Source of the DNA: Raillietiella orientalis
Lineage: Eukaryota
Assembly: GCA_036172245.1 (NCBI GenBank)
Contig: JAYWIR010000076.1
Coordinates: forward strand, 124,001-188,000
Reading direction: 5' to 3'
DNA length: 64,000 nt
Shown here piece by piece: positions 5,533 to 35,909 of the stretch. The number at the start of each line of letters is the position of its first letter. Within the stretch, counting starts at the first letter, position 1. The translations under genes were made by a program, and so were the position numbers. A model generated the notes under the pieces. The model saw only the letters and a list, made by a program, of their open reading frames with translations. It had not been told where the DNA came from and made no database searches.

Positions 5533-8500
5533 TCAAAGGTGTGTAAACCGGCGATGTATGCCGGTGATGTCCCCATTCACCTTGTCACGAAGATGAGACC
5601 ACCTTGAAGCCTTCTCCATGAATTGTGCTGCAAGCAGGTGAGCCTCCCTTCGCTGCGAAGACAACTCCAGGGCGTAGCGGGCCTTCACGATGGCGCGAAC
5701 GCAACACATGTTTGCGACAATCGCGCCAACCGAAAGTCCATTTCTGCTAAAGAAGCGCCGCAGCACATGAATGGCAGTGCCTCCTTGTGGCATGATGGCC
5801 GAAGTGAGCCTTCGCCACAGTTCCCGGAGGTCACCGCAGTCCAGCAAAAGGTGCGGACAAGACTCGATCTCTCCGCACCTTAAACAGTTTGGCAAAGCAG
5901 CTCCCCCGGAAACGATGCTTCGCTGCCTATTACAGTGAAATGCACAATGTAAAAAGAGCAGCACATCTTGTTTCCACTTAAGGGGGAACACGGAGCTGTC
6001 CAAACAAACGGGAGGAACCACTATCTCTCCGAGGGGCACACTTAAATGTTCGCTCCACCGAAGCAGTCCCTTCGCCCGATTCCGAGGTGTGGCGGCTTGC
6101 ACCAGCTCCTTTGTCGTCCAGCTGCCGAGGAGCTTACTGACTCAACCTATTTTGCAGGAGAACTCCCATTCCGCCGGTAGGCAACCGTCGTTGCTTGCCC
6201 TGAGTGCAGACAGCGCTTCGGCGAGTGATGTGGCGGCCAGACGATCCGCCAACTTCTTGTCCTGCATGACTTCGTCCATTTGATGACTGAGGAGAAGTCG
6301 CAGGCGTCGAAGATCTTCCGGCCGCGTTCCTTCGGAAGCCGCCCACAATGAAAAAGATTCCTGCCGCCATTCATTAATGTTCATGGGGCGGCAGGAGATC
6401 CAGCTTTGGGCTTCCAGCAGTGAGGACAGCTGCCTGAGCGGGAAGCCAAACCCTATTCTGGTGTGCCGAAAGTGGGGTAGCAACGAAAGCAGTCCCTCGC
6501 TTCCCGCGCAGCGCCTCAGTATAAGGCGTGCGTGTAAGCACCACGGCGTACACCACAGCTTGGCACAGAGCCGCAGCATGCGAAACTGCACCTGCAGTTC
6601 GATGCTGTTTAAGTCGAGGATGCCCAAGCCTGAATCCTGACGCGGCGCCACCAAGTCTTTAAGTCTAACACGGGATCTTGCAGCGCCCCACAACGCTTTG
6701 CGTAAGAGGCGCTGCGCCCAGACTTTGACTTCCTGGGGGGGTGGACAAACAAAAAACAGGGGGCGGAGGAGGGGGGCAACGAAGGTGTTCCAGATGCAGG
6801 CCCGTTCCGGCAAGACGAACTCGCCTCCTGAAAACGGGCCAAGTGCACGCTCTGCCTACCGAAGGCAGCCCGACCACGCTTCTGAGATGCAGAAGTCGCC
6901 CAACGGCACGCCAAGGTACCTGAGGTACCTGCCCGTGGGGATCCCCAGGTCGATCCAGTCGGACTGCCCCTCCCACGTCGCACCCACCGGAACAACCATA
7001 AACTTACTCCTGTTAACGCTCACGCCCGCACCGCGACGAATCAACTCAAAGAAGTCTTCAAGCGATGTCGCCGGGGTGGACATGGGCAACAGAAGAAGCA
7101 GGTCGTCGGCATAGGCTGCCACGGCAGGCGTACCTGGACAATGGCTCGGCAGGTTGGCTAGCGTCAGCCTGTAAGCCTCCAGCACCAATTCAAAATAGAT
7201 GCTGAAGAGCAGCGGGCTTAAGCTGTCACATTGCCTAATTCCTCGTCGTACCGGCACGCCGTACACGCGACAGCCACTGAAAACAATGGATGTAATCTTG
7301 TGACGCCAGCAGGAGCGCAAGTACGCCAACAGGGATGCCGGAAGACCCATACGTTCCAAAAGCTCAAGAAGAAGCTTTTGGTTCACGCAATCGAAAGCTT
7401 TGTGCAGATCGACTGCAACTGCACAGGCTACTGGGGTTTCGCTTTGCGACCCGTGCCTCCGTTAGTGAGAGATCGAAGGCGTCGCTACCGCATGACGATC
7501 CATTGCCACGCGATGATTCAATGGTAGCCATGTGCGGATGAACAAGAGGTTCGCGTCCATGGACCGCCCAGGAACAGCATAGGTCTGCTCCGGAATCACC
7601 AAAGACTTCGCGATCCTCCCCATCCGCGCCACCCAAAGTTCCGAGAACAACTTGACGTCCGGGTTCACTAATGTGATCGGACGCCAGTTTTTCAGTTGGC
7701 GCAAATCTCCGCCTTTCGGCAGTAGACGCACCTTCGCTGAGCGAAACGAGGCGGGGACATCGACCGAGTCTCGCATCAGTGACGAGAGTTGGAGCATCAG
7801 GGGGATGAGCTCCGCCGCAAAACACTGAAAGAATTCCGCGGGGAGCCCATCTTCGCCTGGCGCTTTTCGTCTCTTGAGCCCCGAGATGGCCGAGGAAATT
7901 TCCTCTGCCGTGAAGGGCTCATCAAGATGCGCGCTTTTCTCCTCGTCTACAACAGGTGCATCAATCGGCAGAAGCAGCAGGGAGAAGCTGCGTTCCGTCG
8001 GTGCCTCTGCATACAGAGAAGAGTAATAGCGCCTGACTATCCGTCGCACGTCGGCTGGAGCCGAGCATTCCCGGTGCTGGTCGTCGAGCAGAACTGTCGC
8101 CCCTGACTGCCAGACCTGGCGCTCGGCCTTGGCCTTGTACTCGGATAATCGACCAACGTCCGCGTGCCTGGAAAAGGAGCGGGCCTGCAGAAAATCTCTG
8201 CTGTTGGCTACGCCCTCTCCGAAGCCGCGCGGAAGCTGGTGCAAGGGAAACCGGCAGCAGAACTCGCGGACCGATCTTTTCAGATCGTCATAGTCCTCGA
8301 GCTCACTTATGGCAAAGCCGAGGAGGTACTGGCGAAGCTGCTCAGCCGCCTACGGGTGCCTTAGCCAGTCTGCCGGCATCCTCCAAAAACAGTTTGGAGG
8401 CCCCTTGCCTGACGGGAGCAATTCAAACTCGAGCCTGTTGTGGTCTCAAAGCACGGACGGCGCGGGACCTCTCCGACCCACTCGACACAGCAAGTGTTCA

Positions 8501-9087
8501 TCAAGGTATACGTGGTCCGGCGTTGCTGCCATAACAGGATCGCTAGCAAACAAGTTCCACGCGTGCACGGACGCGCACATCTCTTCCGCTAGCAACTTTT
8601 CCCTTTTGTGGGATCTATTCTCGGAGGGAAGGTGGACGTTAAAGTATCCCGCAATCAGATGGGCCACAGTAGGGTGAGATCGAGTGAGCCACTGGCTTTG
8701 AAGGGTACCGAAGAACTCAATCCTTTCGGCCCATCGTCCAGCACCGCTCGGCGCGTATACGTTGGTTATGACAAGGTCGATCGAGTCGGACAACTTGAGT
8801 ACAAGCTGTCCCACTCGGCCTTCCGTGTCGAAACGAACGCTGCGCACCGCTGTTGCCAAAGTTCCTCGCACGAGGAAAGCGACGCCGCACCTATAAAGTA
8901 GCGTTCCGCCCGCGCGCCGCTGGATTTCGGCAGCCTGCTCACCGGAGATGCTGTGAATCTCCTGCAGGAGCGTCAAGTCGAAGGCGCTCCGAGCGTCAGC
9001 CACTAGTCGCCTCTTCTCCTCGTGTTGGAGCCCGTTGACGTTCCAAGACGTTACGGCAACACGACGAGCAGACGCGATTGCTCTCAT
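5533..9087 (-). pseudogene. B1 ORF2 (APE + RT + Cys/His), broken by frameshifts and stops
   Basis: ORF pieces 8446..9090 (WNVNG, LQE, NVYAP), 7462..8244, 6856..7386 (YADD), 6142..6813 and 5533..6102. Confidence 0.9.
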
Positions 9088-10991
9088 CACGGCTGGGAAA
9101 GCGAGGCCGTGGTACTCGCCTCACCCGGCGAGCGGGCAGTAAGCAGCACAAAGGGGGTGGTGGACTCGGTCGCCACCGGCCTCAACTGTGCTGCACGTAA
9201 TCGGGTGCTCCTCCCCGGTATAGAACCTGTGATTTCCGAGGTGAGCACTCGCCGTTCCGCGGCGAGTGTGTCACGCCTCAGGGCTTCAGTCCTGCGGGCG
9301 CTCGCTCCCGCGCGAGATACGCGTCCTTCAGCTGCGTTATCGGACTCCTTAGCGGAGTCTGATGCTCGCACGATCGACGTGCGTTTGTATCCGTCCGATT
9401 GCACCGGAATGGTCTTCTCGGCGGTCACAGAAGCGGACTTGCACGCGTTGAAGGCGCTGGCTTTTTCCTTGGAAGAGTCACAAGCCGCGCGTGTTTTCGT
9501 ATTCCCGCGACTGCTTTTTCCTTTGGAAGAGCTCAGGGATGGAGGTTGCGGAGCTTTTTTTGGGGATTTTTCTTTCCTCCTCTTCACAACCTTCCATTCG
9601 CCTTCGCGATTTTCGGAGGCTTCCGCGACAGTAGTTGCGGAAACCTTCGGGATTTTCGCTGCGTTCTCTGGGGGCGTTGCTTTCGCTACGCCTTTAAAAA
9701 ACGGCAACGGAGTCACCTTCTCGACAGTCGGGAGATTGCTCCTCTCGTGCCGAGTCGGCGATGGGGCGACTGCATGCAGCGTGCTTTTGCTCGTCGCGAC
9801 GCTGCTTTTTACGGTTTTCGTAGCCTTTGCAGTGGGGCCTGCGCTGCAGTGGGGCTGTCCGGAACTCCGGAGGGACAACGGAACGGGGCAAGAAGTCTTC
9901 GCACTGTTGCGATCTTCCTGTTTTCCTACCTTTTCCTCCAGTGTGTTACGGAGATTTCCTGGTTCCAGGCTCGGAAAGGTGCCTGCGAGTTCGGCAGAGA
10001 GGGAAGGCACGGCACGCGTCAAACCCTCGCGCCCCTTTTTAATTGGCTTCCCCGCCGTTACTTTCCCCTTTCGGGGCGTTGCGGGCGGGGATGCTTTCTT
10101 TTTATCCGCGGATCGCTCGTGGTTTTTTTCGAGTTTTAGCGGACGAGGTTCTTTATTTGCCGCTGCGGCTTTTCGTGCAGTGGTCTCTTGAACCCGACGA
10201 ATTTCCGCTGCGGCTCTTTTTCTTGCAAGTACCGGGCACTTTTTGATTTCGTGCCCGGAATCTTTGCAATAGCGGCATCTTGGAGAGGGGCACTCTTTAA
10301 TTCGGTGCCCCTCCTTGCCGCACTGCTCGCACGCGCGACTCTGGCCTATGAACCACAGGTGAACGACCGTGCCGTTCACCTGCAGCTGCTCAGGCACAAC
10401 ACGCCTGTTCGCGACGGTGATCCGCGCGGAGGCTTGTCCAATGTGGACAGAGGGGAAATCCTTAAGAAGATTTCGCCTCCTCCACAGAGCGTGCACGGTG
10501 GCGAACTTCGCCTGCACACTTACGATATCGCGGTAGGAGATTTCCGGTTCGATGTCACACAATTGAACGACAAAAGAGTCGTCCATCGCGGTAGGTAGGA
10601 CTTCCTTGCCATTGAAGGTCAACGGCGTACGGAGAAGGCGCTGCACAAGTGCTGCGTTCTTGTACCGAATCTTCGTATTTTCCATCCTGCCAGGAGGCAT
10701 TATGGCAAGGACTTCCTCCTCGCGAACGCCGATCCGGACGAGCTCATCATTGAGCTCACGACCGATACTCCCGTTAAGGGGCCCACTGACCTTATAACGG
10801 AGTGCAGGCATGTATCCTGATGACACATATGCCTGGAACTCCGCATCGCAGGGTCCTGGTGTTTGGGAGGTAACGGCGGAGTAACTCCGCACCGGGGGCG
10901 AGGAAACCATTACGGAGGATGCGGCCACTTCAAGTGCAGCTGAAGTGCATCCAGTGGCTTGCTCCTCCACACTATCCTGTGTACTGGCCAT
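9087..10991 (-). CDS. B1 ORF1, uninterrupted 634-aa gag-like zinc-knuckle protein
   Basis: CEQCGKEGHRIKEC and CRYCKDSGHEIKKC. Ends in a TGATG overlap with ORF2 (9085-9089). Confidence 0.85.
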   Translation of the reverse strand: MASTQDSVEEQATGCTSAALEVAASSVMVSSPPVRSYSAVTSQTPGPCDAEFQAYVSSGYMPALRYKVSGPLNGSIGRELNDELVRIGVREEEVLAIMPPGRMENTKIRYKNAALVQRLLRTPLTFNGKEVLPTAMDDSFVVQLCDIEPEISYRDIVSVQAKFATVHALWRRRNLLKDFPSVHIGQASARITVANRRVVPEQLQVNGTVVHLWFIGQSRACEQCGKEGHRIKECPSPRCRYCKDSGHEIKKCPVLARKRAAAEIRRVQETTARKAAAANKEPRPLKLEKNHERSADKKKASPPATPRKGKVTAGKPIKKGREGLTRAVPSLSAELAGTFPSLEPGNLRNTLEEKVGKQEDRNSAKTSCPVPLSLRSSGQPHCSAGPTAKATKTVKSSVATSKSTLHAVAPSPTRHERSNLPTVEKVTPLPFFKGVAKATPPENAAKIPKVSATTVAEASENREGEWKVVKRRKEKSPKKAPQPPSLSSSKGKSSRGNTKTRAACDSSKEKASAFNACKSASVTAEKTIPVQSDGYKRTSIVRASDSAKESDNAAEGRVSRAGASARRTEALRRDTLAAERRVLTSEITGSIPGRSTRLRAAQLRPVATESTTPFVLLTARSPGEASTTASLSQP

Positions 10992-11476
10992 GTTGCACTA
11001 TGCTACTTGGCAGATTGCACAGGAACACACAAGTGCGAGCAAAAACGCAGGCACAAAGTTGCCCGATCGTTGGCGCGGAAAGACGCGGAAACACGTCTGC
11101 ACTGTACGAGCGCGGGAGATTTCTCACCCGGTCACGCCGGGGCGTTTATTCCATATAACATAACCAAAAAAAAAAGCAATTATACAAAATAAACCAGTTG
11201 GGAACCAAACTCCCAACCGACGACTGAACAAGAATGAAGAGAATATTGCTGGCACGCAGGCCAGAGTAACAGTTTTGTGAACGGTGTGGGGGGGCGGGAA
11301 ACACAAAGAAACCAAAATAAAATAAAAACAATAAATAAGGAGGACGGGATAAGGGTCTTTGGGATCGCTCTGGAAGACACGGGGATAAAAGCATGGGCAC
11401 CCGAAATTTTACCGAGCGAACGGGGACGGGGTATGGGTGGGCGAGAGGTCGCAGGGGTCACCGGATTACGCCGTTC

Positions 11477-14400
11477 TCAAAGGTGTGTAAACCGGCGATG
11501 TATGCCGGTGATGTCCTCATTCACCTTGTCACGAAGATGAGACCACCTTGAAGCCTTCTCCATGAATTGAGCTGCAAGCAGGTGAGCCTCCTTTCGCTGC
11601 GCTGACAACTCCAGGGCGTAGCGGGCCTTCACGATGGCGCGAACGCAACACATGGTTGCGACAATCGCGCCAACCGAAAGTCCATTTCTGCTGAAGAAGC
11701 GCCGCAGCACATCAATGGCAGTGCCTCCTTGTGGCATGATGGCCGAAGTGAGCCTTCGCCACAGTTCCCGGAGGTCACCGCAGTCCAACAAAAGGTGCGG
11801 AAAAGACTCGATCTCTCCGCACCTTAAACAGTTTGGCAAACTAGCTCCCCCGGAAACGATGCTTCGCTGCCTATTACAGTGAAATGCACAATGTAAAAAG
11901 AGGAGCACATCTTGTTTCCACTTAAGGGGGAACACGGAGCTGTCCAAACAAACGGGGGGACCCACTATCTCTCCGGGGGGCACACTTAAATGTTCGCTCC
12001 ACCGAAGCAGTCCCTTCGCCCGATTCCGAGGTGTGGCGGCTTGCACCCGCTCCTTTGTCGTCCAGCTGCCGAGGAGCTTACTGACTCCCGCTATTTTGCA
12101 GGAGAACTCCCATTCCGCCGGTAGGCAACCGTCGTTGCTTGCCCTGAGGGCAGACAGCGCTACGGCGAGTGGTGTGGCGGCCAGACGATCCGACAACTTC
12201 TTGTCCTGCATGACTTCGTCCATTTGATGACTGAGGAGAAGTCGCAGGCGTCGAAAATCTTCCGGGCGCGTTCCTTCGGAAGCTGCCCACGATGAAAAAG
12301 ATTCCTGCCGCCATGCATTAATGTTCATGGGGCGGCAGGAGATCCAGCTTTGGGCTTCCAGCAGTGAGGACAGCTGCCTCAGCGGGAAGCCAAACCCTAT
12401 TCTGGTGTGCCGAAAGTGGGGTAGCAACGAAAGCAGTCCCTCGCTTCCCGTGCAGCGCCTCAGTATAAGGCGTGCGAATAAGCACCACGGCGTACATCAC
12501 AGCTTGGCACAGAGCCGCAGCATGCGAAACTGCACCTGCAGTTCGATGCTGTTCAAGTCGAGGATGCCCAAGCCTGCATCCTGACGCGGCGCCACCAAGT
12601 CTTTAAGTCTAACACGGGATCTTGCAGCGCCCCACAACGCTTTGCGTAGAAGGCGCTGCGCCCAGACTTTGACTTCCTGGGGGGGTGGACAAACAAAAAA
12701 CGGGGGGCGGAGGAGGGGGGCAACGAAGGTGTTCCAGATGCGAGCCCGTTCCGGCAAGACGAACTCGCCTCCTGAAAACGGGCTAAGTGCACGCTCTGCC
12801 TTCCGAAGGCAGTCCGACCACGCTTCTGAGACGCAGAAGTCGCCCAACGGCACGCCAAGGTACCTGAGGTACCTGCCCGTGGGGATCTGCAGGTCGATCC
12901 AGTCGGACTGCCCCTCCCACGTCGCACCAACCGGAACAACCATACACTTACTCCTGTTAACGCTCACGCCCGCACCACGACGGATCAACTCAAAGAAATC
13001 TTCAAGCGACGCTGTCGGGGTGGACATGGGCAACAGGAGAAGCAGGTCGTCGGCATAGGCTGCCACGGCAGGCGTACCTGGACAGGAGCTCGGCAGGTTG
13101 GCTAGCGTCAGCCTGTAAGCCTTCAGCACCAATTCAAAATAGATGCTGAAGAGCAGCGGGCTTAAGCTGTCACCCTGCCTAATTCCTCGTCGTACCGGCA
13201 CGCCGTACACGCGACACCCACTGAAAACAATGGATGTAATCGCGTGGCGCCAGCAGGAGCGCAAGTACGCCAACAGGGATGCGGGAAGACCCACACGTTT
13301 CAAAAGCTCAAGAAGAAGATTTTGGTTCACGCAATCGAAAGCTTTGTGCAGATCGACTGCAACCGCCAAGGCTCCCGGTGTCTCCCTTTGCGTCCCGCGC
13401 CTCTGTCGGTGAGAGATCGAAGGCGTCGCTTCCGCACGACGATCCACCTCCACACGAAGCTGCAATTGCAGCCATGTGCGGATGAACAAGAGATTCGCAT
13501 CCATGGACCGTCCTGGAACAGCGTACGTCTGCTCCGGACTTACCAAGGATTCCGCGATCCTACCCATCCGCGCCACCAAAAGTTTCGAAAACAACTTGAC
13601 GTGCGAATTCACTAATGTGATCGGACGCCAGTTTTTCAGTTGGCGCAAATCTTCGCCTTTCGGCATTAGACGCACCTTCGCTGAGCAAAACGAGGCGGGC
13701 ACATCGCCCGAGTATCGCTTCAACCACGAGAGTTGGAGAACCAGGGGGATGAGCTCCGCCGCAAAACACTGGAAGAATTCCGCGGGGAGCCCATCTTCGC
13801 CTGGCACTTTTCGACTCTTGAGCCCCGAGATGGCCGAGGAAATTTCCTCTGCCGTGAAGGGCTCATCAAGACGCGCGCGTTCCTCCTCGTCTACAACAGG
13901 TGCATCAATCGGCAGAAGCAGCCGGGAGAGGCTGCGTTCCGTCGGTGCCTCTGCATACAGAGAAGAGTAATAGCGCCTGACTATCCGTCGCACGTCGGCA
14001 GGAGCCGAGCATTGCCGGTCCTGGTCGTCGAGCAGAACTGTCGCCCCTGACTGCCAGACCTGGCGCTCGGCCTTGGCCTTGTACTCGGATAATCGACCAA
14101 CGTCCGCGCGCCTGGAAAAGGAGCGGGCCTGCAGAAAATCTCTGCTGTTGGCTACGCCCTCTCCGAAGCCGCGCGGAAGCTGGTGCAAGGGAAACCGGCA
14201 GCAGAACTCGCGGCCCGATCTTTTCAGATCGTCCCAGTCCTCGAGCTCACTTATGGCAAAGCCGAGGAGGTACTGGCGAAGATGCTCAGCCGCCTCCGGG
14301 TGGCTTAGCTAATCTGCCGGCATCCTCCAAAAACAGTTTGGAGGCCCCTTGCCTGGCGGGAGCAACTCGAACTCGAGCCTGTTGTGGTCTGAAAGCACGG

Positions 14401-15049
14401 ACGGCACGGGACCTCTCCGACCCACTCGACAGAGCAAGTGTTCATCAAGGTATACGTGATCCGGCGTTGCTGCCATAACAGGGTCGCTAGCGAACAAGTT
14501 GCACGCGTGCACGGACGCGCACATCTCTTCCGCTAGCAACTTTTCCCTTTTGTGGGATCTATTCTCGGAAAGCAATTGGACGTTAAAGTCCCCCGCAATG
14601 AGATGGGCCACAGTAGGGTGAGATCGAGTGAGCCACTGGCCTTGAAGGGTACCGAAGAACTCAATCCTTTCGGCCCATCGTCCAGCACCGCTCGGCGCGT
14701 ACACGTTGGTTACGACAAGGTCGATCGAGTCGGACCACTTGAGTAAAAGCTGTCCCACTCGGCCTTCCGTGTCGAAACGAACGCTGCGCACCGCTCCCGC
14801 CAAAGTTCCTCTCACGAGGAAAGCGACGCCGCACGTACGTGCAACGCCGCACCTATAAAGTAGCGTTCCGCCCGCGCGCCGTTCGATTTCGGCAGCCTGC
14901 TCTCTGGAGATGCTGTGAATCTCCTGCAGGAGCGTCAAGTCGAAGGCGCGCAGAGCGTCAGCCACTAGTCGCCTCTTCTCCTCGTGTTGGAGCCCGTTGA
15001 CGTTCCAAGACGTTACGGCAACACGACGAGAAGACGCGATTGCCCTCAG
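11477..15049 (-). pseudogene. B2 ORF2 (APE + RT), interrupted by in-frame stops
   Basis: ORFs 14309..15052 (GDFN, SDH), 12497..14188 (YADD) and 11477..12427 lie in the same frame. Confidence 0.9.
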
Positions 15050-16952
15050 CACGGCTGGGAAAGCGAGGCCGTGGTGCTCGCCTCACCCGGCGAGCGGGCA
15101 GTAAGCAGCACGACGGGCTGGAGGGCGCGGTCGCCACCGGCCTCAACTGTGCTGCACGTAATCGGGTGCTCCTCCCCGGGGGCAGAACCTGTGGGTTCCG
15201 GGGTGAGCACTCGCCGTTCCGCGGCGAGTGTGTCACGCCTCAGGGCTTCAGCCCTGCGGGCGCTCGCTCCCGCGCGAGTTACGCGTCGTTCAGCTGCGTT
15301 ATCGGACTCCTTTGCGAATTCTGATGCTCGCACGATCGACGTGCGCTTGCATCCGTCCGATTGCACCGGAATGGTCTTCTCGGCGGTCACAGAAGCGGAC
15401 TTGCACGCGTTGAAGGCGTTGGCTTTTCCTTGGAAGAGTCACAAGCCGCGCGTGTTTTCGTATTCGCGCGACTGCTTTTTCCTTTGGAAGAGCTCAGGGA
15501 TGGAGGTTGCGGAGCTTTCTTTGGAGATTTTTCTTTCCTCCTCTCCACAACCTTCCATTCGCCTTCGCGATGTTCGGAAGCTTCCGCGACAGTAGTTGCG
15601 GAAACCTCCGGGATTTTCGCTGCGTTCTCTGGGGGCGTTGCTTTCGCTACGCCTTTAAAAGGCGGCAACGGAGTCACCTTCTTGACAGTCGGGAGATTCC
15701 TCCTCTCCTGCCGAGTCGGCGATGGGGCGACTGCATGCAGCGTGCTTTTGCTCGTTGCGACGCTGCTTTTTACGGCTTTCGTAGCCTTTGCAGTGGGGCC
15801 TGCGCTGCAGTGGGGCTGTCCGGAACTCGGAAGGGACAACGGAACGGGGCAAGAAGTCTTCGCACTGTTGCGATCTTCCTGTTTTCCTACCTTTCCCTCC
15901 AAGGTGTTACGGAGATTTCCTGGTTCCAGGTTCGGAAAGGTGCCTGCGAGTTCGGCAGAGAGGGAAGGCACGGCACGCGTCAAACCCTCGCGCCCCTTTT
16001 TAATTGGCTTCCCCGCCGTGACTTTCCCCTTTCGGGGCGTTGCGGGCGGGGATGCTTTCTTTTCATCCGCAGATCGCTCGTGGTTTTTTTCGAGTTTTTG
16101 CGGACGACGTTTTTTATTTGCCGCTGCGGCTTTTCGTGCAGTGGTCTCTTGAACCCGACGAATTTCCGCTGCGGCTCTTTTACTTGCAAGTACCGGGCAC
16201 TTCTTGATTTCGTGCCCGGAATCTTTGCAATAGCGGCATCTTGGAGAGGGGCACTCTTTAATTCGGTGCCCATCCTTGCCGCACTGCTCGCACGCGCGAG
16301 TCTGGCCTATGAACCACAGGTGAACGACCGTGCCGTTCACCTGCAGCTGCTCAGGCACAACACGCCTGTTCGCGACGGTGATCCGCGCGGAGGCTTGTCC
16401 AATGTGGACAGAGGGGAAATCCTTTAGAAAATTTGGCGTCCTCCACAGAGCATGCACGGTGGCGAACTTCGCCAGCACACTTACGACATCGCGGTCGGAG
16501 ATTTCCGGTTCGATGTCGCACAATTGAACGACAAAAGAGTCGTCCATCGCGGTAGTTAGGACTTCCTTGCCATTGATGGTCAACGGCGTACGGAGAAGGC
16601 GCTGCACAAGTGCTGCGTTCTTGCACCGAATCTTCGTATATTCCATCCTGCCAGCAGGCATTATGGCAAGGAGTTCCTCCTCGCGAACGCCTATCCGGAC
16701 GAGCTCATCATTGAGCTCACGACCGAATCTCCCGTTAAGTGGCCCACTGACCTTATAACGGAGTGCAGGCATGTATCCTGATGACACATATGCCTGGAAC
16801 TCCGCATCGCAGGGTCCTGGTCTTTGGAAGGTAACGACGGCGTAACTCCTCACCGGGGGCGAGGAAACCATTACGGAGGATGCGGCCACTTCAAGTGCAG
16901 CTGAAGTGCATCCAGTGCCTTGCTCCTCCACACTATCCTGTGTACTGGCCAT
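15049..16952 (-). pseudogene. B2 ORF1, frameshifted near 15425
   Basis: ORFs 15387..16952 and 15046..15390 together match B1 ORF1. Confidence 0.87.
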
Positions 16953-17081
16953 GTTGCACTATGCTACTTGGCAGATTGCACAGGAACACACAAGTGCGAG
17001 CAAAAACGCAGGCACAAAGGTGCCCGATCGTTGGCGCGGAAAGACGCGGAAACACGTCTGCACTGTACGAGCGCAGGAGAT

Positions 17082-17805
17082 CGAACGGATCTCGGGTGGG
17101 CGGCTGTTGTGGCGTTGCGGCACCGCGAAATCAAGCGGTGTCGCCTTCCTGCTTCGGCCAGCCATCGAGACCGCAATAAAGGACGTTCGGTTCGATGACG
17201 CAGGTCGCGTCGGTCAGCTGACTCTCAGCTGGTCCGACTCTATCGACCTGGTCGTCACCAACCTATACGCTCCTAGCGGTAACAACGCGCTGAGAGCGAA
17301 GGCAAGAAGGGAATTCTACCTTGCCCTGAGACGCGATTGGCTGACCGATGCAGGAGTTCGCAAAGCGCACCTGATCGCAGGTGATTTCAACCTGCGCCTG
17401 CTTTCAGGTGCGCCGGATACACTGAACGACCGCGTCAACGAGTTGTGCGCAGAAATGAACACGCGCAACTTGTTGGCCGGGGACACGGCCATGGAAAGCA
17501 GCACCGATCACGTGTACCTTGATCTGCACCTATGCTCTCGGGTGGGCAGGCGCGGCAAGGTACCATCCGAGCTGTCGGACCATGGTCGGATCATGTTCGA
17601 AATGCGTCCGCGCGACAAGGGCTCCCCCTCGTCAGCGTGACGTCTGCCAGGGGACTAGCTGAAGTTTCCCGACGCTGCGGAGCACCTTTGCGCGTTCATT
17701 CGGAGCTTCAGGATGCAGACACTTCAGGACTGGGACCGCTTCAAGCGGTCGGTCCAGGAGTTCTGCGACCAGTTCCCCTGCATCGCCTACCTGCGGGGTT
17801 TGGGG
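17082..17805 (+). mobile_element. Element E segment 2 (APE endonuclease core and linker)
   Basis: SGVAFLL, NLYAP, AGDFN, DHVYL, LSDH, then PLHRLPAGFG where F is inserted. Confidence 0.9.
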
Positions 17806-18022
17806 TTCTCACCCGGGTACGCCCGGGGCGTTTATTGAAAAAAGTCTACATAAACGTGGTACAAGGCCCCTCTAACGGCCACACAACACCGGACCTGCCG
17901 GGACGCCGGGACGCAGCCCGGCGTGACGCTCCTCGGCAGTGGAGGGGGATAGGGATCAAAACAAAAAGAAAAATAAAGATATCAAAAGAAAAACAAAAAG
18001 AGTTTGGAGGGAGGGGAAGGGA

Positions 18023-21000
18023 TCACAATCCACTGGGAGGAGGGCCCATGCATCGTAGGATGCCTTCCAGGTCCATCTTCATGCTTCCCAGATAGGGCCA
18101 TCTCGCAGCTCTCCGCATGAAGCAGACCGCATACGGGATGACATCCCTCGCGTTGGCATCCACTCCTTCGTCGCGAATGTCGCTCCAGGCCGCCACGATG
18201 CTTCGGATGCAGCAGAGGGCTGCGAGGGCTGCGGCGGGCTGCAAGGCGTCCCGCACGAAGAGGGGCCAAAGAACGTCTCTGGGCGCGCTGCCCATTGGGA
18301 GCCCGAGGGTCGTCCCGAACCGTTCCCACAGTCAACAAGTAAGTGGAGGAGCAATTCCCGCTCCTTACACCTGGCACACTCAGGCCTTACACTTCCCCTC
18401 GTCCAGTGGAAGCGGCGCGCGTTGCAGGGTAGACCCCAGTGCAACAGTAGCAGCGCCAACTCTTGCCACTTAAGGGGGAGAAGCCTGGATTTGATTAATA
18501 TTGGCGGCCACTTCAGGTCATCCGTCGGGATGCCGAGAAGCTCTCCCCATCTACGAAGTCCACGCGGGAGGGCAATCGGGGTTGTGGCATCTGCCAGTTC
18601 TCCCATGGTCCAACCGCTCTTCCTCTTTTCCTTGCCTGCGATTCGGCAGGAGACTTGCCACTTTGGCTTGCGGCCGGTCGTTAAAGCCCTTCGTAGGAAG
18701 GGCAGGGTCGAAGCTAGGGGGGTATTCTCGGCCCACGTGCTCCTGGCGGGACACTCCAGAGTAGTCCGCAGTGTGTAGCAGGCGTTGGGGCGGTTCCAGT
18801 CCGGGGAAGTCTGGAGGTTCAGCTTGGCCCAAGTCGCAACGGATTCCTCCAGCCAGGCGGAGGAGTTGGCGGGGCTGCATACCATCCAGCCGTTGTCTCT
18901 CACCAGGGCTTCCATGCGCCCAAGGAGAAGGTTGCATCTTCTGACCTTCCTGCCAGAGCACAGAAGGTACGACGCGAGTCCTTGCGTCCTGGACACACGG
19001 CTGGCGAGGATGCGGGCCTGAGCGCACCAAGGGGTCCTCCATGACATTGCTGCGATGGCGAGGGTGCGCCATCGCAGCTGTATTTCCAGGCGCTCCAGCG
19101 TCAGGAGGCCGAGACCGCCGTCCCGACGAGGAGTGCATAAGTCATCTAGAGGCACACGTGGCCTTTCGCTGCCCCAGAGGGCGATGCGGAGTACGTCCTT
19201 GGTCCTCTTTTTAATGTCACGGGGGACGGGGCAAACAAAAAGCAGTTGGCGGAGGATGGGAGCCGCGAACGCGTTCCACACCGCGGCCCGTTCCGGCAGA
19301 AGGAACTTGCCTTCCAGGAACACGCCGATTGCCAACTCTACCTTTTGGAGACGACCTGACGAGGCTTCTGCGAGGCAGAAGTCCCCCAACGAAACACCCA
19401 GGTACTTCAGGTACCTGGCCGCGGGGATCCCCAAGCGGATCAAGTCAGGCCGTGCGACCTACGTCGCACCCACCGGTACGACCGACGACTTCGCCTTGTT
19501 TACCCGAAGTCCAGTCCCACGACTTAGCAGGTCGAAGAAATCCTCGACTGCGGCTGCCGGGGCGGACATGGGCAACATGAGCAGAATGTCGTCGGGGTAT
19601 GCTGCTACCCCGGGCGTGCCGGGGCACGAGCTGGGCAGGGCAGCCAAAGTCACCCTGTACGCTCTCAGCACCAACTCAAAGTAGGTGCTAAAGAGCAGGG
19701 GACTGAGGCTATCGCCCTGCCGTATGCCCCGTAGCACCGACACGCCGTACACCTGTTGGCTGGAGAAGCAGATGTTAAGGATGGCGTTGCGCCAGCAGGA
19801 GCGCAGGAAGGAGAGAAGGGAGGGTGGGAAGCCCATGCGACCCAGGAGCTCCAACAGTAGCTCCTGGTCAACGCACTCGAACGCCTTATGGAGATCGACC
19901 GCGATCGCTAGGGCCCCCTTTTCAGCCCGGGTGTCTATTTCCAGCCCAGCTGGCGGTTCCAAAGTGGGGTTGCCAATCTTACCGCCAGTTTCATTCAGGC
20001 AGCGCTGCACATGGAACCATTTGCTCGCGAAGAACAGGTTGGCATCCATACTTCGCCCGGGAACAGCGTATGTCTGCTCCGGGCTAATTATGGAGTCTGC
20101 CACCTGTCCTAGACGCGAAGCCCACAGTCCAGCGACCAGCTTGGCGTCCGTATTCACAATTGTGATCGGCCGCCAGTTGTCTAGGGATCTCAGGTATGCT
20201 CCCTTCGGGAGGAGCCTCACACGGGCTGACCGAAACGAGGCGGGACCGTCGCCTTCATCTCGGATCAGCCCGGTCAACTGGAGCACCAGAGGAGCCAGCT
20301 CTGTCGCGAAGCATTGAAAGAATTCCGCAGGCATGCCGTCCTCCCCTGGCGCCTTACGCCTCTTGAGCCTTTTAATACCGGCGAGAATTTCACCGGTAGA
20401 AAAAGGCTCGTCGAGGCTGATCCTCTCCTCCTCCCCTATTGCCTGGACTCCGTCGGGAAGCAGGAGCCGCGAGGCGTCCCGCTCTGGGGGTGCCCTAGCG
20501 TAGAGGGAGGAATAGTACTGCCGCACGAGGTGCCTGATCGCGGGTGGGGCCGATCGCTCCCGGCCCTGGTCGTCCCGCAAGCTGGCCGACCCGGATTGCC
20601 AGGCTTGGCGCTCGGCCCCGGCTGGAAATTCGGCCAGGCGACGGACATTGGAGGACCTCCCTTACCGGCGGGCCTGTAAATAGGCCCTATGGTTCCGAGC
20701 CCCCTCCCCAAATCCGGAAGGCAGGCGGTGCAGGGGAAACTCCTCGCAGAACTCGCGGACCGAGGCCTTGAAGAGGTCCCAATCTTTGAGACTGCGGAGG
20801 GTGACGCCTCTCAGGAATTCGTCAAGGTGTTCCTTCGCACCTTAGAGCCGCGTCCAGTCCCCAGGCAACCGCCACGCCCTGGCCGGGGGTCCTTCATCGC
20901 GCGGGCATACCTCGGCGATTAACCTGGAATGGTCCGACAGCGTCCACGCAACTTTTCCCCGTTTGCCGACCCGCGAGCACAGGTCGACATCCAGGAAGAA

Positions 21001-21584
21001 GTGGTCGATGCTGCGGTCCATTCCCTCCGCGTCCACCAAGTTGCGCGTGCGCATAGCAGCGCACAACTCGTTTGCCGTGCGTTCTTGTGCTTCGGGCTCA
21101 CCTGACAGCATACGGAGATTAAAGTCCCCAGCTATCAGGTGTGCTTCCGCACGTTCGTATCGGCCAGCCAGTCGCGCTTCAGGGTTTCCACCAACCTGGT
21201 ACGGTCGCTGTGTCCCCCTTTCCCGGTTGGTTCGTACACGTTCGTGACGATCAATTCGATCGAGTCGGACCAGCTGAGAATCAGCTGACCGACCCGACCG
21301 TCGTCATCGAAGCGTACGCCCTTGACGGCAGCGTCGATGGCCGGCTTCACGAAAAACGCGACCCCACAGATGTTACGTGCGCCGCATCGCCAATACAGTC
21401 GACCATCCGCGATTTTCTCGATCTCCTGGACGTCTGCCGAGGTGATCACGTGGATCTCCTGCAGCAGAGCCAGGTCGAACTCACGCATGGTGTAGGCCGT
21501 ATCTCGTCTGTTGCCGTCGTCGCGCAGCCCGTTGACGTTCCAACTGGCCACGCGGATTCGACGGCGACAGGCGAGCCCAGGTGT
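18023..21584 (-). pseudogene. F ORF2 (APE + RT), frameshifted
   Basis: WNVNG/LQE (21135..21551), RT 19459..20580 (AYPDD), C-terminus 18079..19443. Confidence 0.88.
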
Positions 21585-23335
21585 TATTCCTGGGAAATCG
21601 GCTCTGCGGCGTCCGCCACCTGTTGGGGCGGGACGCTAGTTGGGGCAGGAGGGACAGGTGCCTCGAGCACCTGGTCCCCCTCCTCCATCGGTAACGGCGC
21701 GTCGAGAGGGTCACCCTCCGGTGGGGTCGCGCCTACCAGTTGGCCCTCCTCCATACGGGTGGGCTGTACAGGTTCCGCGCCAGCAAGGAGCACTTCGCCC
21801 CCCTGCTCACCCTCCTCCATGGGAGTGGCCTGCTCGACGACTTCCGCGCGTGGGATTTCCCCCTCCGGGATTCCCACGCTGCCTTCGGCTTCCTGCTTCT
21901 CCAGCTCGCTCGTGGAGGGGAGGCGCCTCCTCGGCTTTTGGGACTTGCGTCCCGTCTTCCGGGGGGTGCCTCCGACGAGGAGGATGCACTTCCGGCCCCC
22001 AGGTCGCACTCACCTGCGGGGGCCTTCTTCGGCGGAGCCGGCCTTCGCACGGCCTTGCGTGAGGGGTTCTCACGCTCGGCCAGCGTGGTCGCGAGCTCCT
22101 CCGCCGCCTGCGCGAAAGTGGCGTCCTCGCTTTCGGCGCGCGCTTCCCGCGGCTCACCCTCTGTGCAAACAGGGTTCGTCGTCGCGAACCTCGGGCGCGG
22201 CGGAAACGGCAAGGGGAGGCTCGTCGCCCCGGGTGGCAGCCTCGGGGACGGCAATCCGTTCGAGTGCCACCGTGCACTCGCGAAGAGCTTTCGAGCGCGG
22301 ACCGGGTTCATTCGGTTTCGCGCTCTTTTCTCTCTTCGCTCTCGCGGGTTCCACGGGGGGAACTTATTTTTCTTTTCTGGCCTTTACCAGCTTCCATGCT
22401 TCTTCCTCTCCCGCGTCTTCAGCGGGTTTTCCCTCCGACGCTTGGGTGGGAGGAACAGGAGATGGCGGCTGGGGCCGGCCAGTTTCGCGATAAGGTCTTT
22501 CAACTTTTTTTCCTTTTTTGGCCTGCGCCTTTTTGGCAGCAGGTGACACCGGTGTGGGGCGTTTGGGGCACACACGACGAACGTGTCCCTTAACCCCGCA
22601 CAAGTGGCATTCGATATTCGGGCACCGCTTGCGCAAGTGCCCTACTGCATCGCAGTATCCACAATAGCGGGGTTTCCCCACGTACCAGAGGTCGACGGAT
22701 TCCTTTGCGACCTCCAGTTTGTGGGGCAAGCCACTGCCCTCATTAACTGTTACACGCGCTGCGGCCAAGCCTTCGAAATGGCTATTAAAGCCTTCGAAAA
22801 TGGTAGGCTTTGGCCACAACGCGTGTATCTCACCGTACTTACTTAGTGCATTACTCACCGCAGATCGCGTCATGCGTTTCGTAATGCCGGTTAGATGGAC
22901 CACTACGGAGCAGTCCATGCTAACCGGAAGGATCTTCCGGCCATCCACATTCAGCGGGGTGTTAATGAGGCGCTGTGCTAAGGCTACGTCTTTGCAGACG
23001 ACCTCCACGCGCTGCCTCCCGCTGAGTACGGAGAGGCCGTCAAGATCCTCCTCGCGTACAGGGAAATCCTGCAGGGCCCTACTAAAAGCCCGGGCGGTGC
23101 GACCATCAAACAGGGGTCCTACCTTATAAACCAGAGATGGTTTATATCCGGAAGCCCTGTAGGCCGCTTGCTCTGCCAAGGTTTCCGCGCTCGGCGCGGA
23201 AACCATGGCGCTCCACGTCCTCGGCGTTGCCGGGGATGATTCCGGGGCGGACGCCCCTGATTCTGCAGGCTGTTGGGGTGGGCAAGCCTCTTCCACACTT
23301 ACCTCCATCGTGGTGTTCTCAGGCATCGCTGCCAT
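21584..23335 (-). pseudogene. F ORF1 (frameshifted)
   Basis: ORFs 22364..23368, 22154..22354, 21733..22311 and 21584..22009 are successive pieces. Confidence 0.82.
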
Positions 23336-23380
23336 CGGACACCAACGATGTTCCACACGAACACACACAAAGAAAAAACA

Positions 23381-25611
23381 GCTTCCTGTCCGACGTTACG
23401 CGAGAACCCCCGACATGCGCAGGTTAGCAGAGTATCGAGCGGAAGCCGAGAGGCAAGCCTGGCAATCCGGGTCGGCCAGCTTGCTGGACGACCAGGGCCG
23501 GGAGCACTCGGTTCCCACTCAGAAACGCGGGATAGTGAGGAAATTTTACTCCTCCCTGTACGTCAGGGCGCCTCCGGAGCAGGCTGTCTCACGACTCCTG
23601 CTTCCGGAAGGTGCTCCAGCAATGGGGGAGGAGGAGAAAAGGAAACTCGACGAACCTTTCACGATGGGCGAGATCATCTCGGCCATCGGAAAGCACAAGA
23701 GGCGAAAGGCTCAGGGGAGGACGGCCTGCCTGCGGAGTTTTATCAAACTTTCGCGGCAGAGCTTACTCCCCTGGTACATCAGCTCACCTTGCTGATCCGC
23801 GAAACAGGTGACGTTCCCACCTCGTTTCGTTCAGCAAAGGTGCGGCTCCTCCCTAAGGGAGGAGACCTTAGGAGCATGAACAACTGGCGTCCCATCACAA
23901 TAGTGAATGCGGACGCCAAGTTGCTAGCCAAGCTGTGGGCAGAGCGCCTGGGACGGGTCGCCAACATCTTCATCAGCTCGGAACAGACGTATGCTGTTCC
24001 CGGGCAAAGTATGTAGGCGAACCTGTTCCACGCTTCTACATGGTTAGAGCTCCAACAAGGAAGGAGCATAATAAGCAACCGGAATTCCGGTGCGTCCGTC
24101 GGTGGGGGACGGGGTGGTCGGGAGGGGAGAGGAGCCCTCGCGGTCGCAGTCGATTTGCATAAAGCATTCGATTGCGTCGACCAGAATCTTTTTTTTGAGC
24201 TTCTGGAACGCATGGGATTCCCGGCCTCTTTGCTGGACTATCTGCGCTCCAGCTGGCGCGACGCGCTTATTAATGTTTTTTTTAGTGAATCCACCGTGTA
24301 CGGCGTACCGGTGCGACGCGGCGTACGGCAGGGAGACAGCCTCAGCCCCTTGCTCTTCAGCGCCTATTTCGAATTGGTGCTGAGAGCGTACTGGGAGATT
24401 CTGGCGCACCTGCCGTGCGATTGTGCCGGTACGCCTGCGGTTTCGGCGTACGCGGACGAACTTCTGCTGCTGCTGCCTATGTCCACCACGGCTGCGGCGG
24501 TCGAGGAGTTCTTCGACCTGCTGAGTCGGGGAACAGGACTGACGGTGAACAGGGTTAAGTCGTCCGTAATGCCAGTCGGAGCGGCGTGGGCAGGGCAGCA
24601 GGACTGGGTCCGTTTCAGGATTCCCATGGTGAGGTACCTCAAGTACCTTGGTGTGCCGTTGGGGGACTACTTCCCTGCGGAAGCGTGGTCCGGCTGCCTT
24701 CATAAGTCTCAGGCGGCGATCGGCCCGTTCCAGGACGGCAGGTTCTACCTGCAGGAACGGGCCGCGGCGTGGAACGCGTTTGCGGCCCCCCTCCTTCGCC
24801 CCTACCTTTTTGTTTGCCCCCCCTCGGCGGAGTCAAAGAAGAGGACCAAGGACCTCCTGAGGATCGCCCTTTGGGGCAGAGTGAGGCCCCGAGACCCTCT
24901 TTCGGACTTGTGCGCTCCTCGTCGGGATGGTGGTCTGGGCCTCCTGACGTTGGAGCGGCTGGAGCTACAGCTCCAGTTCCGAGTTGTTGCCTTTATGGCA
25001 GGAAATTGGTGCACCCCTTGGTGCCTCCCTGCACGTCTCCTCGTCAAGCAGGCCATTGGCAATGCGGGAATCTAGTCCTACTTTGCACTCCGAAGCCCCA
25101 TCTGCCACTGCGGACTTCAACTTCGGAGGGCGGCCAAGCTCGTAGAGAACAACTCGGCGGGGATCCTCGTACGCCCCGCGAACGGTCCTGCCTGGTTGCA
25201 GGAAACCGTCCGCACGTGGGCGATGAATCAGGAGCAGAGCCCGCAACACGAGCGAATAGCCCTGTTCGGGCCGCATGTCCACCGCACGCTCCGAGAAATC
25301 ATCGAGAATCCCCGCAGGCGAGCGTGGGCACAAAGAACCTCCCTTGCTGCGGTACTGCCTACCCTATGGGAACATCTGGGCAGCGACGTCGCGGCACAAT
25401 GGGAGGTTACTGTCAAGATCGCCAGCAGGGCAAAGAAGATCGGGGATTGGAGAACGGGTCAGCTCACCAACGCTGCGACCCCGAGGACCACCCCAAATGG
25501 ACTGTTGCGCTGGGGAGAGCTACTGGATGTTCCAGAGGAACTTCTCGTGTTGCCCCCGGTGCGCATGGACTCGCGCACCCTCCTCATGAAGTGGCAACAG
25601 TCGGCACTGCT
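23381..25611 (+). mobile_element. Element E segment 3 (RT domain)
   Basis: AERQAWQSG, WRPITIVN, HKAFD, GVRQGD, AYADE. Ends at KWQQSALL where D is inserted. Confidence 0.88.
25600..25611 (+). repeat. Target-site duplication of D: gtcggcactgct (second copy 31101-31112)
   Basis: Exact 12-bp direct repeat. Removing D restores KWQQSALL-VLHWGLPCNAR. Confidence 0.93.
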
Positions 25612-25837
25612 TTTACACCCGGGTGCGCCGGGGCGTTTATTTCTTTAATAAAAAAAAATAAACAAGCAAGTGTAGGGCTATCGCCCCTACAGTGTTCAGA
25701 ACATGTTCTTCTGAACTCGCCGAGTGGGCAGTACGCAGGCTCTCAAGGTCGATTCGGCAGCGGAGGGGGAAGGGACAAATAGAAAAAAGCAAAAAGAAAA
25801 CACTATTTACAAAAGCAGGGAGGGGTTGGGGAAGGGA

Positions 25838-28800
25838 TCACGTTCCGCTGGAGACGTCCTCTACATCCTTTGCAGGATGCCGACAAGTTCAAACTGCATG
25901 TGTCCCAGTTGGGTCCATCTGGCTGCCGTCCTCAGGAAGCGCAGGGCGTAGCACAAGATGTCCCTATTGTTCGGTTTACCAGTGGCGGTGCTCCAAGCCG
26001 CTACAATCCCTCGTAGGCAGCAGAGGGCTGCAAGGGCTGCGGCAGGCGAAAGGGCGTCGCGCACGAAGAGGCGCTTTAAAAGGTCTCTGGGAGCGTGCAA
26101 GAGTGCACCAACGGCTGTTGCAAAGCGCAACCACAAGGGCCGGAGGGCAACACAGTCAACGAGCAGGTGCGGGAGAGTTTCTCGTTCCCCGCACCTGACA
26201 CAGTTTGGGTCCACAACCCCCCTCGACCAATGAGAGCGGCGGGCGTTGCTGGGGAGTCCCCAGTGCAACACCAGGAACGCCGACTCCTGCCACTTTAGGG
26301 GGAGGGCCCGAGTATTCCTCAGCACTGGGGGCCACTCGAGTGCATCCCGCAAGATGCACAGCAGCTCGCCCCAGCGCAACAGTCCTCTCGGTGGGGAACT
26401 TGGGATCGCGGCATCAGCAAGCTGACCCGTGTTCCAACCACCTTGTTCTTTCTCAGTGTCCCTGATCGTACACCGGGCCTCCCACATGGCCGGCTGGCTA
26501 CTGCCCAGATGTTCCTTGAGGTGAGACAGAGCTGTGGCAAGGGAGGTCCTCTCAGCCCACGCACTCAAGGCGGGCTGCACGATGATGTCCGGCAGCGAGC
26601 GGCTCTTATGATAGGAGTGCAGCATTTGCTGCCGCAACTCCGGGCTCGCTTCCTCGATCTGGGCCTACGTGCGAAGGCTTTCCTGCAACCAGGAAGTGCC
26701 GTTCGCGGGCCGGCAGGAGATCCAGGTGTTCTTCCTGGTCAGCTTCGCCACTCGCCGAAGAGCCAGTCCGCAGTGGAACAGGTACCGGCGTTTGCGGCGC
26801 GCTAGGAAGGTAGACAGTCCCGCGCAGCCGCCGACTCGCTGAACCAGGCATCGTGCAGGCTCGCACCAGCTGCCGCTCCACAACTTCGCCACTAGGGCGA
26901 TTGTTCGGAACTGCAGCTGCAGTTCGAGGCGCTCCAGCGTGAGGAGGCCAAGGCCCCTATCGCGACGAGGGGCGCACAAGTCCTTCCAACGCGCGCGGGG
27001 CCTTCCTCTGCCCCAGATGGCGATTCTGAGAAGGTCCTTTGTACGTGTTCTCACACCACGGGGTGGGGGACAAACAAAAAGCAAGGAGCGAAACAGGGGG
27101 GCCACGAAAGTGTTCCACAGCACGGCCCGTTCCGGCAAGAAGAACTTGCCATCCAGGAACGGGCCGATCGCTCTCTCGGCCTTTTGGAGGCAGCAAGACC
27201 ATTGTTCCGCTGGGGAGTAGTCCCCCAACGGCACACCGAGGTACTTAAGGTGCCGTACCGTTGGGATCACCAAGCGAGACCAGTCTAGCTGCCCTGCCCA
27301 CGAGGAACCGACTGCAACAACGGACGACTTTGCTCTGTTCACCTCTAGTCCTGTCCCGCGACGCAGCAGCTCGAAAAAGTTTTCGACCGCCGACGCCGGG
27401 GTGGACATGGGGAGCAGCAGCAGAAGATCGTCCGCATACGCCGCCAAGGCCGGTGTACCTGGGCACACGCGCGGCAGGCGACCAAGAGTCTCCCTGAATG
27501 CCCTCAGCACCAACTCGAAGTAGGTGCTGAAGAGCAAGGGGCTCAAGCAATCACCATGCCGTATCCCGCGGCGCACCGGCACACCGAACAGGTTTCTTCC
27601 CCTGAAAGAAATGTTGGTCAGCGCGTCGTGCCAGCAAGAGCGCAGAAAGGCCAATAAGGTGGCCGGGAAGCCCAAGCGCTCCAGAAGCTCCAGCAGGAGC
27701 TCCTGGTCGACACTGTCGAATGCTTTCCGCAAATCGACAGCGACTGCGAGGGCCCCTTCTCTCTCCCGACTATCCCGCGAACCACCAGCGGACGTCCCGC
27801 AAATCGGGCTGCCGACCTTGTTCCCTCCATTCATTCTGGTTCTTTGAAGTTCGAACCAGGTGTTCGCGAAGAGCAGGTTGGCGTCCATGCTTCGCACGGG
27901 AACAGCGTAGGTCTGCTCCGGGCTGATGAAGCTTTCCGCCACCCGCCCCATTCGCTCCGACCATAGCTTCGCAACCAGCTTGGCGTCCGCGTTCAGTATG
28001 GTAATCGGACGCCAATTGCTGAGGTTCCGTAAGTCTCCTCCTTACGGTAGGAGACGCATACGTGCCGATCGGAAGGAGGCGGGAACGTCTCCTGTCTCCC
28101 GGATCAGCAGCGTTAGCCGCTGCACCAGGGGAGCCAGCTCCGCCGCGAAGCACTGAAAAAACTCCGCGGGCAGGCCGTCTTCCCCCGGTGACTTCCGCCT
28201 TTTGAGCTTCCCGATTGCGGTGATGATTCCACCCATCGTGAAAGGCTCGTCCAGGCGTACTCTCTTTTCTTCCCCGATCGCCGGGGCACCGTCCGGAAGC
28301 AAAAATTGGGAAAATTCCCGGTCCGGAGGCACCCTGGTGTACAGGGAAGAATAATAGCCGTGCACTAGGCTACTCACCTCTGCCGGGGCCGAGTGCCCTT
28401 GGCCTTCGTCGTCCAGCAGGCTGGGCGACCCCGATTGCCAGGCCTGCCGCTCGGCCCCGGCTTTAAATTCCGCCAGTCTTCGGACGTCTGGTGTTCGGGA
28501 GTAACGACGGGCCTACAGGTAAGCCCTATCGTTCCGAACACCTTCTCCAAATCCTTTCGGGAGACGGTCCATGGGGAACTGTTGGCAGAACTCTCGCACC
28601 GAGACTTTCAAATCGTCCCAGTCGTCGAGCGTCTGCAGGCTACAACCTCGCAAGAACGCGCGGAGGTGTTCCGCTGCGCCTGGCTTGGTCAGCCAGTCCC
28701 CCGGTAGACGCCATGCCTGCGCGGGGGGCCTTCTGTCGCGCGGGCGAATGACGAGTTCCACACGAGAGTGGTCGGAGATTGCGGACTGTATCTTACCTCG

Positions 28801-35900: not shown

Positions 35901-35909
35901 GATTGAAAT

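Follow-up and report, generated by a model that had tools for sequence, protein, structure and literature searches.

Two copies of one lineage of non-LTR retrotransposon, A and F, lie antisense inside two other LINE copies, Z and E, and interrupt them at the same homologous base of ORF2, in the linker between the endonuclease and reverse-transcriptase domains. Both host–insert pairs are part of a nest of related elements that fills the left 42 kb of the window, by which we mean the whole 64,000-nucleotide stretch of DNA analysed. We assign a probability of about 0.55 to the reading that Z–A and E–F arose in separate TPRT events by an A/F lineage that prefers a single linker site of its sibling LINEs. 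This reading is drawn from sequence comparison, and the evidence for it, together with three competing accounts, is set out below.

The nest is marked off by base composition, with a GC content of 55–63% over positions 1–42,180 and of 30–49% in the remaining 22 kb of the window. It consists of copies and fragments of one non-LTR retrotransposon family, inserted into one another within an AT-rich animal locus. Pieces of ORF1 and ORF2 were placed by tblastn on the most intact sister copy, and each junction was read directly. ORF2 comprises ca. 1200 residues, with an APE-like endonuclease (residues 24–233), a reverse transcriptase (RT; residues 477–744) and a weak zf-RVT-like C terminus, and ORF1 bears CCHC knuckles. 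In the domain profile search, Exo_endo_phos (E=8e-11 to 1.7e-11) and RVT_1 (E~1e-19 to 6e-20) both passed their curated cut-offs; zf-RVT in ORF2 scored 20.9 and 12.7 bits, under the cut-off of 27.5, zf-CCHC in ORF1 scored 21.4, 19.3 and 17 bits at a cut-off of 20.8, and no RRM above cut-off was found in the LINE proteins. The best solved-structure matches to the endonuclease were human L1 endonuclease chains (E=6e-6 to 1.7e-5), with low scores that bacterial ExoIII about equalled, and neither TRAS1 nor R1Bm endonuclease chains were among the 15 solved-structure matches. On sequence grounds, the family likely belongs to the L1/Tx1 group. Its N-terminal endonuclease, central RT and TPRT insertion signature identify it as an APE-type LINE family. 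The signature comprises 11-bp duplications for B, E and D as well as 5′-cut fragments (C2, G and an A-like fragment), and the duplications at these three insertions, other than the focal ones, indicate orderly TPRT. Every visible 3′ end carries AATAAACG / AATAA(A/T)CG, a GC hairpin and a tail of 6–9 nt that ends in A, without poly(A).

The LINE copies are decayed. Their in-frame stops are mixed (TAG, TGA and TAA) and their frameshifts few, so that we regard them as pseudogenes, with no sign of a variant genetic code. Among private substitutions in the copies, G>A and C>T predominate (48 + 40 of 216 in A; 50 + 43 of 249 in F, for example), and this excess, together with the many in-frame stops and few indels, would fit decay through deamination of methylated CpG. 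The protein collection contains almost nothing of the family: there is a single close relative of 55% identity, located on a 2.9-kb contig, and the next entries are 25–32% identical. The closest named proteins, from Rhizopus and Gossypium, show 25–30% identity, and some of them have zf-RVT.

At its left end the nest begins with Z, a plus-strand host fragment at positions 1–264 that extends past the window edge and covers ORF2 residues ca. 221–307 plus 1 nt by tblastn. The 3′ part of A follows on the minus strand (265–3282), with the tail TTGTAA at 265–270, the hairpin at 271–286, a 3′ UTR reaching to ca. 478, and ORF2 residues 278–1198. An upstream piece of A (31776–32103, minus strand, ORF2 ca. 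165–281), which is 78% identical to F at 20789–21123, is split from the 3′ part by the insertion of E. This full-length, plus-strand element (3283–31764) lies antisense in A at LRNL, is flanked by the 11-bp duplication agattccggag (3272–3282 and 31765–31775) and in turn contains the insertions B1, B2, F and D. B1 (5180–11109) and B2 (11121–17070) are the two minus-strand units of a tandem dimer at AREI in E; they are 95% identical, and their 11-bp duplication gcSCRggagat is present in three copies, at 5169–5179, between the units at 11110–11120, and at 17071–17081. The next piece of E (17082–17805, plus strand, ORF2 ca. 66–307) ends at the second focal junction, 17805/17806, where the near full-length, A/F-type element F begins on the minus strand (17806 to ca. 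23378; tail TGAGAA at 17806–17811, hairpin at 17812–17827, ORF2 at 18053–21596 and ORF1 at 22565–23176, both on the minus strand). Past F, E continues on the plus strand from 23379 to 25610 (ORF2 ca. 316–1062), up to the full-length minus-strand element D, which is inserted at SALL (25611–31100; duplication gtcggcactgc at 25600–25610 and 31101–31111) and whose own linker site, GGATTTGGAG, is unoccupied.

The right part of the nest holds a second dimer. C1 (32104–35900, minus strand), which has an internal deletion, sits at DFN in A in the orientation of A, and the second unit, C2 (35910 to ca. 39845, minus strand), is cut at its 5′ end near the start of ORF2. Copies of gattgaaat flank C1 at 32095–32103 and 35901–35909, the latter between C1 and C2, and the units are 96% identical over their common part. 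G, the 3′ part of a plus-strand LINE (ca. 39850–41390, ORF2 ca. 775 to the end), has its 3′ end at KAFD of the A-like fragment (41391–42180, minus strand, ORF2 322–583), which is 87% identical to A and whose 5′ side, where the nest ends on the right, adjoins non-LINE DNA. At 39845–39960, the 5′ end of C2 meets G (plus strand, ORF2 ca. 775), and the residues of A below 165 that would be expected there are missing, which indicates a deletion or rearrangement in the nest. The full-length starts of E (3283), B1 (11109), B2 (17070), D (31100) and C1 (35900) have a common motif on the sense strand; in these four lineages, it consists of ca. 10–14 nt, then GACGTGT, then a T-run. The motif is missing from F, which may therefore be slightly 5′-truncated.

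Beyond the nest, the flank holds several other features. Just past the right edge, two plus-strand ORFs at 43354–44382 match Viral_Rep (PF02407, E=8e-14) and the superfamily-3 RNA_helicase profile (E=1e-3) and represent a circovirus-like (CRESS-DNA) Rep remnant in two frames, which is bracketed by 117-nt direct repeats of 84% identity (42190–42306 and 44590–44705). Farther along, an apparently intronless plus-strand ORF of 153 residues (52206–52667) encodes a CAP/GAPR-1-like protein (CAP E=1e-23) with best named matches in a crinoid and in fish, at 44–46% identity, and a minus-strand exon at 54877–55182 matches the alpha-galactosidase A / NAGA family (Melibiase_2, E=6e-23). From the animal matches of the CAP protein we conclude that the DNA comes from an animal.

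Direct reading of the two focal junctions confirmed that they fall at bases 264 and 17805, as the earlier note had claimed. At the first junction (264/265), Z reads cgcctgccccaggaatttggtg (..gaatttggtg) up to 264 and is followed by ttacaa-cccgggtacgcccagg of A; at the second (17805/17806), E reads cgcctacctgcggggtttgggg (..gggtttgggg) up to 17805 and is followed by ttctca-cccgggtacgcccggg of F. Both host ends map by tblastn to residue 307 of the reference ORF2, between the APE and RT domains, and the break point lies one base past the G of the conserved linker motif (R/Q)LPxGFG, that is, after the first base of the next codon. The hosts Z and E are on the plus strand and the inserts A and F on the minus strand, so the insertion is antisense both times; the proposed match in codon position and orientation holds exactly, at residue 307 plus one base. 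Compared with every sister copy, E lacks 1 nt at 17774; this deletion accounts for RLPAGFG lying one frame off the upstream ORF, and the nucleotide alignment keeps the same homologous base. An extra C at 17774 is present in at least two contigs of sequencing run X1 (13% of sampled words; 747 contigs placed on 11000–30999 at 80% likeness, 25 of them at a likeness of at least 99%). Among the 6 of 554 loose contig ends and 8 of 801 pieces that were listed for this run, none fell at 17805. At the 5′ junction of F, ca. 20 nt of E are lost and there is no target-site duplication; E resumes at ca. 23379 on the far side, which identifies F as a true insertion. An origin of Z–A by twin priming or inversion was ruled out, as the complete 3′ terminus of A meets an internal point of the host, and in the parallel E–F case, the host resumes beyond the insert.

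The inserts also resemble each other at their 3′ ends. On the minus strand, A ends in AATAATCGT-CCTGGG-CGTA-CCCGGG-TTGTAA and F in AATAAACGC-CCCGGG-CGTA-CCCGGG-TGAGAA. Both hairpins fold with a 6-bp stem and a 4-nt loop, which bears out the hairpin variant that had been ascribed to A and F, and within the nest the combination of a 6-bp stem with a CGTA loop is confined to these two copies; E and D have CCCGG-CGCAC-CCGGG, and B and C have CCCGG-CGTGA-CCGGG. The 3′ UTRs of A and F are similar, as had been noted, but this likeness does not discriminate, since the UTR architecture is common to all lineages. Identity of the 3′ UTR was accordingly discarded as a subfamily marker: the UTRs are low in complexity, and global alignments give 73–83% for every pair.

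We consider Z–A and E–F to be, with good support from the sequence, independent events of the A/F lineage that agree in base and orientation. The alternative is that one ancestral junction was copied later, by segmental duplication or by composite retrotransposition of host plus insert, and a single BLAST alignment that crosses both junctions (186–3282 versus 17728–20799, 76.8% identity) could be read in this way; such an alignment is, however, what any pair of homologous hosts would give if both were cut at one base. Had one junction been copied, divergence should be the same on either side of it. In the 264 nt of host that precede the junction, Z and E are 63% identical, whereas the inserts A and F are 78% identical across the matching stretch (76.8% over 3.1 kb by self-BLAST), which argues against a single junction. 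In a maximum-likelihood tree of that 264-nt stretch from nine copies, Z joins A and F with support of 98/98 and E falls outside; forcing a clade of Z and E costs 14.1 log-likelihood units and is rejected by the AU test (p=0.0069). The tree thus assigns Z to the A/F lineage, as one of its old members, and E to another lineage. Moreover, the nesting order is strict, with A in Z, E in A with its own ends and 11-bp duplication, and F in E, and the tails of the inserts are unlike, TTGTAA in A and TGAGAA in F. A single duplicated junction, which the earlier note had named as the scenario that would overturn its claim, therefore fails on nesting, on identity and on the tree, and we judge it very improbable. 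Two independent insertions into hosts of different lineages agree with all three lines of evidence.

Could independent insertions have met at one base by chance? Under a model of uniform insertion on both strands of a 3.6–6-kb element with seven independent sites, the probability that any two of the seven junctions coincide in base and orientation is 0.0018–0.0029. These odds change if the endonuclease reads a short motif such as TTTGGNG, in which case a weak preference plus luck would account for the shared site, and the nesting would be due to another cause, for example chromatin state or tolerance of insertions. Full-length elements hold 3–6 TTTGGNG on both strands taken together, so that the odds of a repeated site would be ca. 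1 in 3 to 1 in 6. The nest contains TTTGGNG 35 times, and 11 TTTGGNGA sites carry no insert, including the homologous linker positions of F and D; the motif alone is thus not the determinant. The linker site is of the TTTGGNG type in Z, E, F and D but reads TTCGGAG in B and C and TTCAACG in A. Moreover, homology of the hosts by itself gives a shared motif, so TTTGGNG at both junctions is no independent sign that the endonuclease recognises it. A weak motif also requires a separate cause for the nesting and leaves unexplained the two tandem dimers with copies of the duplication between their units. Taken together, we find this explanation unlikely.

The family inserts preferentially into copies of its own kind, a self-nesting like that of Cnl1 and Zepp: all nine visible 3′ junctions lie inside sibling LINEs, in a window that had been flagged for its nest, which biases this sample. 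The A-like fragment at 41391–42180 borders non-LINE DNA on its 5′ side, a point against the preferred reading. Within the nest, the visible 3′ junctions of a lineage fall at one site in two of two cases for A/F, and likewise in two of two for B and for C, in these last as tandem dimers; E, D and G have one junction each, at LRNL, SALL and KAFD. All sites that had been named for the other subfamilies were found (AREI for B, DFN for C, SALL for D, LRNL for E and KAFD for G). The part of the original claim that gives A/F a specific linker site stands in so far as two independent hits fall on the same base, with a fixed site read from n=2. The wider part, that other subfamilies use other sites, finds some support in the B and C dimers, but E, D and G are related to a similar degree and occupy three sites with n=1 each. 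Indeed, the 3′ regions of E and G show 76% identity, compared with 77% for A and F, and E and D have one hairpin variant, yet sit at different sites. Site specificity of the A/F lineage for the linker base is thus plausible, on two events, and a fixed site for every subfamily appears partly supported.

A copy of the target-site duplication between tandem units is taken, in the account cited (PMC5932611), which gives R1 as an example, to show that two insertions struck one site, and tandem insertions are also noted for a U2-specific LINE (PMC4640811, in the part concerned with that element). By analogy, the B and C dimers may be signatures of double insertion at one site, an interpretation with some support. 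Private changes between dimer units number 90 versus 64 in B (p=0.044) and 47 versus 31 in C (p=0.089); these rates are only mildly unequal and do not separate double insertion from duplication at the DNA level.

Outside searches returned no further copies of the nest family. A metagenome scan with a degenerate 3′-end pattern gave 32 loci, none of which has protein or nucleotide similarity to the nest, and all 32 are thus taken as chance matches. A 26-mer pattern specific to A/F had no matches in genome contigs and none in viral contigs. Eight loci from a protein-profile scan of genome contigs, at 22–28% identity, were rejected as other LINEs in MAG contigs.

On the reading we prefer, lineage-specific TPRT at the linker, the APE-type endonuclease of the element would nick the sense strand of the host ORF2 at 5′-TTTGGNG^A, after the first base of the codon that follows G-F-G. 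From the freed 3′ OH, reverse transcription would start directly at the 3′ terminus of the element's RNA, AAUAAACG-hairpin-UGAGAA or AAUAAACG-hairpin-UUGUAA, without poly(A). A nick in the sense strand, combined with priming on the RNA 3′ end, would leave the insert antisense to its host. The hairpin may serve as the recognition element, or handle, of the RT, and the endonuclease would set the site. The wider family would be target-specific with sibling LINEs as its targets, and insertion of this kind would build the 42-kb nest. That an endonuclease can set the site is shown, in the account cited, by TRAS1/SART1 domain swaps and by cleavage assays with Tx1L and R1Bm, and such endonucleases are described there as recognising ca. 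10 bp around the cut (PMC1919474). The APE-type clades Tx1 and R1 include target-specific families, and transposons are among the known targets, as stated in another account (PMC4640811). Against a preference of this kind, a motif common to all seven nick sites was looked for and not found, and F has a target deletion of ca. 20 nt, whereas other lineages have an 11-bp duplication.

The site might instead be carried by the RNA. Transcripts of A/F that read through into the donor flank would end in antisense sequence of the sibling-LINE linker; this tail would anneal to the homologous region and fix the start of reverse transcription, so that the site would be inherited without a highly specific endonuclease. 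Homing of this kind would account both for different heritable sites in close lineages and for the tandem dimers. A precedent is R1Bm, for which the cited account, referring to Anzai 2005, states that the RNA must carry downstream target sequence if initiation is to be accurate (PMC7265360). The sequence of E offers a possible trace: its last 70 nt before the junction (17736–17805) are F-like at 11 of 13 informative sites, compared with 406 of 923 over the whole ORF2 of E, and of 350 sliding 70-nt windows, only 4 reach this level. A maximum chi-square scan locates a breakpoint at a distance of 70 columns from the junction (permutation p=0.012), and the self-BLAST alignment of A and F continues for 78 nt into both hosts. 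This signal is, however, post hoc, being one of eight comparisons with a window size picked after looking; the stretch is conserved across all lineages, and the patch shows no significant likeness to A or Z. Given the choice of window and the conservation, we treat the patch as unexplained and not as evidence; it could be a read-through flank, the mark of a recombinant host, or noise. We consider RNA-guided homing improbable, and it is similarly doubtful that the site passes through the RNA and not the endonuclease, with each lineage homing to the landing place of its founder. Were the site inherited in this way, sister LINEs would divide up one another's coding sequence, with a landing site reserved for each lineage, self-contained nests would grow away from host genes, and the F-like patch in E would be the footprint of the guiding tail.

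Target specificity and self-nesting are each known from other LINEs. Target-specific APE-type LINEs include Tx1L, which inserts into Tx1D, as well as R1, TRAS and SART. Like the nest family, Tx1L of Xenopus and the Tx1 clade are APE-type LINEs whose target is another repeat or mobile sequence and whose 3′ junction is precise, as far as the accounts cited describe them (PMC1919474, PMC4640811). The specificity of the Tx1 clade is attributed to the endonuclease in the first of these accounts (PMC1919474), and the nest endonuclease, whose family shows a weak zf-RVT match, is nearest to the L1 type among solved structures. The targets of the Tx1 clade are a DNA transposon, an RNA gene or a microsatellite, whereas that of the nest elements is the coding sequence of sibling LINEs; moreover, unlike in the Tx1 clade, several sister lineages of the nest appear to use different sites. 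With R1, TRAS and SART, the nest shares base-precise 3′ junctions and, in the case of R1 as described in the cited account (PMC5932611), tandem arrays whose units are separated by target sequence. In these elements, the cited accounts ascribe the site to the endonuclease (PMC1919474) and, for R1Bm, describe a need of the RNA for downstream target sequence (PMC7265360). By contrast, the nest endonuclease matched L1 and not R1Bm or TRAS1 chains, and its targets are neither rDNA nor telomeric repeats.

Nesting within the own family is described for Cnl1 of Cryptococcus, which inserts into itself and forms nested arrays (PMC9942834, in the part on this element), and for Zepp and ZeppL of green algae, of which ZeppL is nested at algal centromeres according to the account cited (bioRxiv 10.1101/2025.03.28.645958). 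In these accounts, Cnl1 has a tandem orientation near telomeres and ZeppL forms centromeric clusters, whereas A and F are antisense at one ORF2 nucleotide in an animal locus. A per-lineage site map for Cnl1 or ZeppL does not appear in the accounts cited, as far as they extend (PMC9942834; bioRxiv 10.1101/2025.03.28.645958), and no description of per-lineage site partitioning among sister LINEs was found in the parts of the open-access literature consulted. The use of a defined nucleotide of sibling-LINE coding sequence as a target, hit in antisense, looks new, and sister lineages also appear to hold different sites. By analogy with these systems, the nest family would behave both as target-specific APE-type LINEs do and as self-nesting ones do.

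Target-specific LINEs serve as models for how an APE-type endonuclease or an RNA 3′ end chooses a single site, and as tools for gene delivery to safe sites. With two cases in one window, the present finding remains a lead. If sister lineages do home to different nucleotides of one another's ORF2, they would provide a natural series in which endonuclease residues or RNA tails can be mapped to the site. If true, it would also show one means by which a LINE family can last in an animal genome and leave host genes intact, namely nests made of its own copies.
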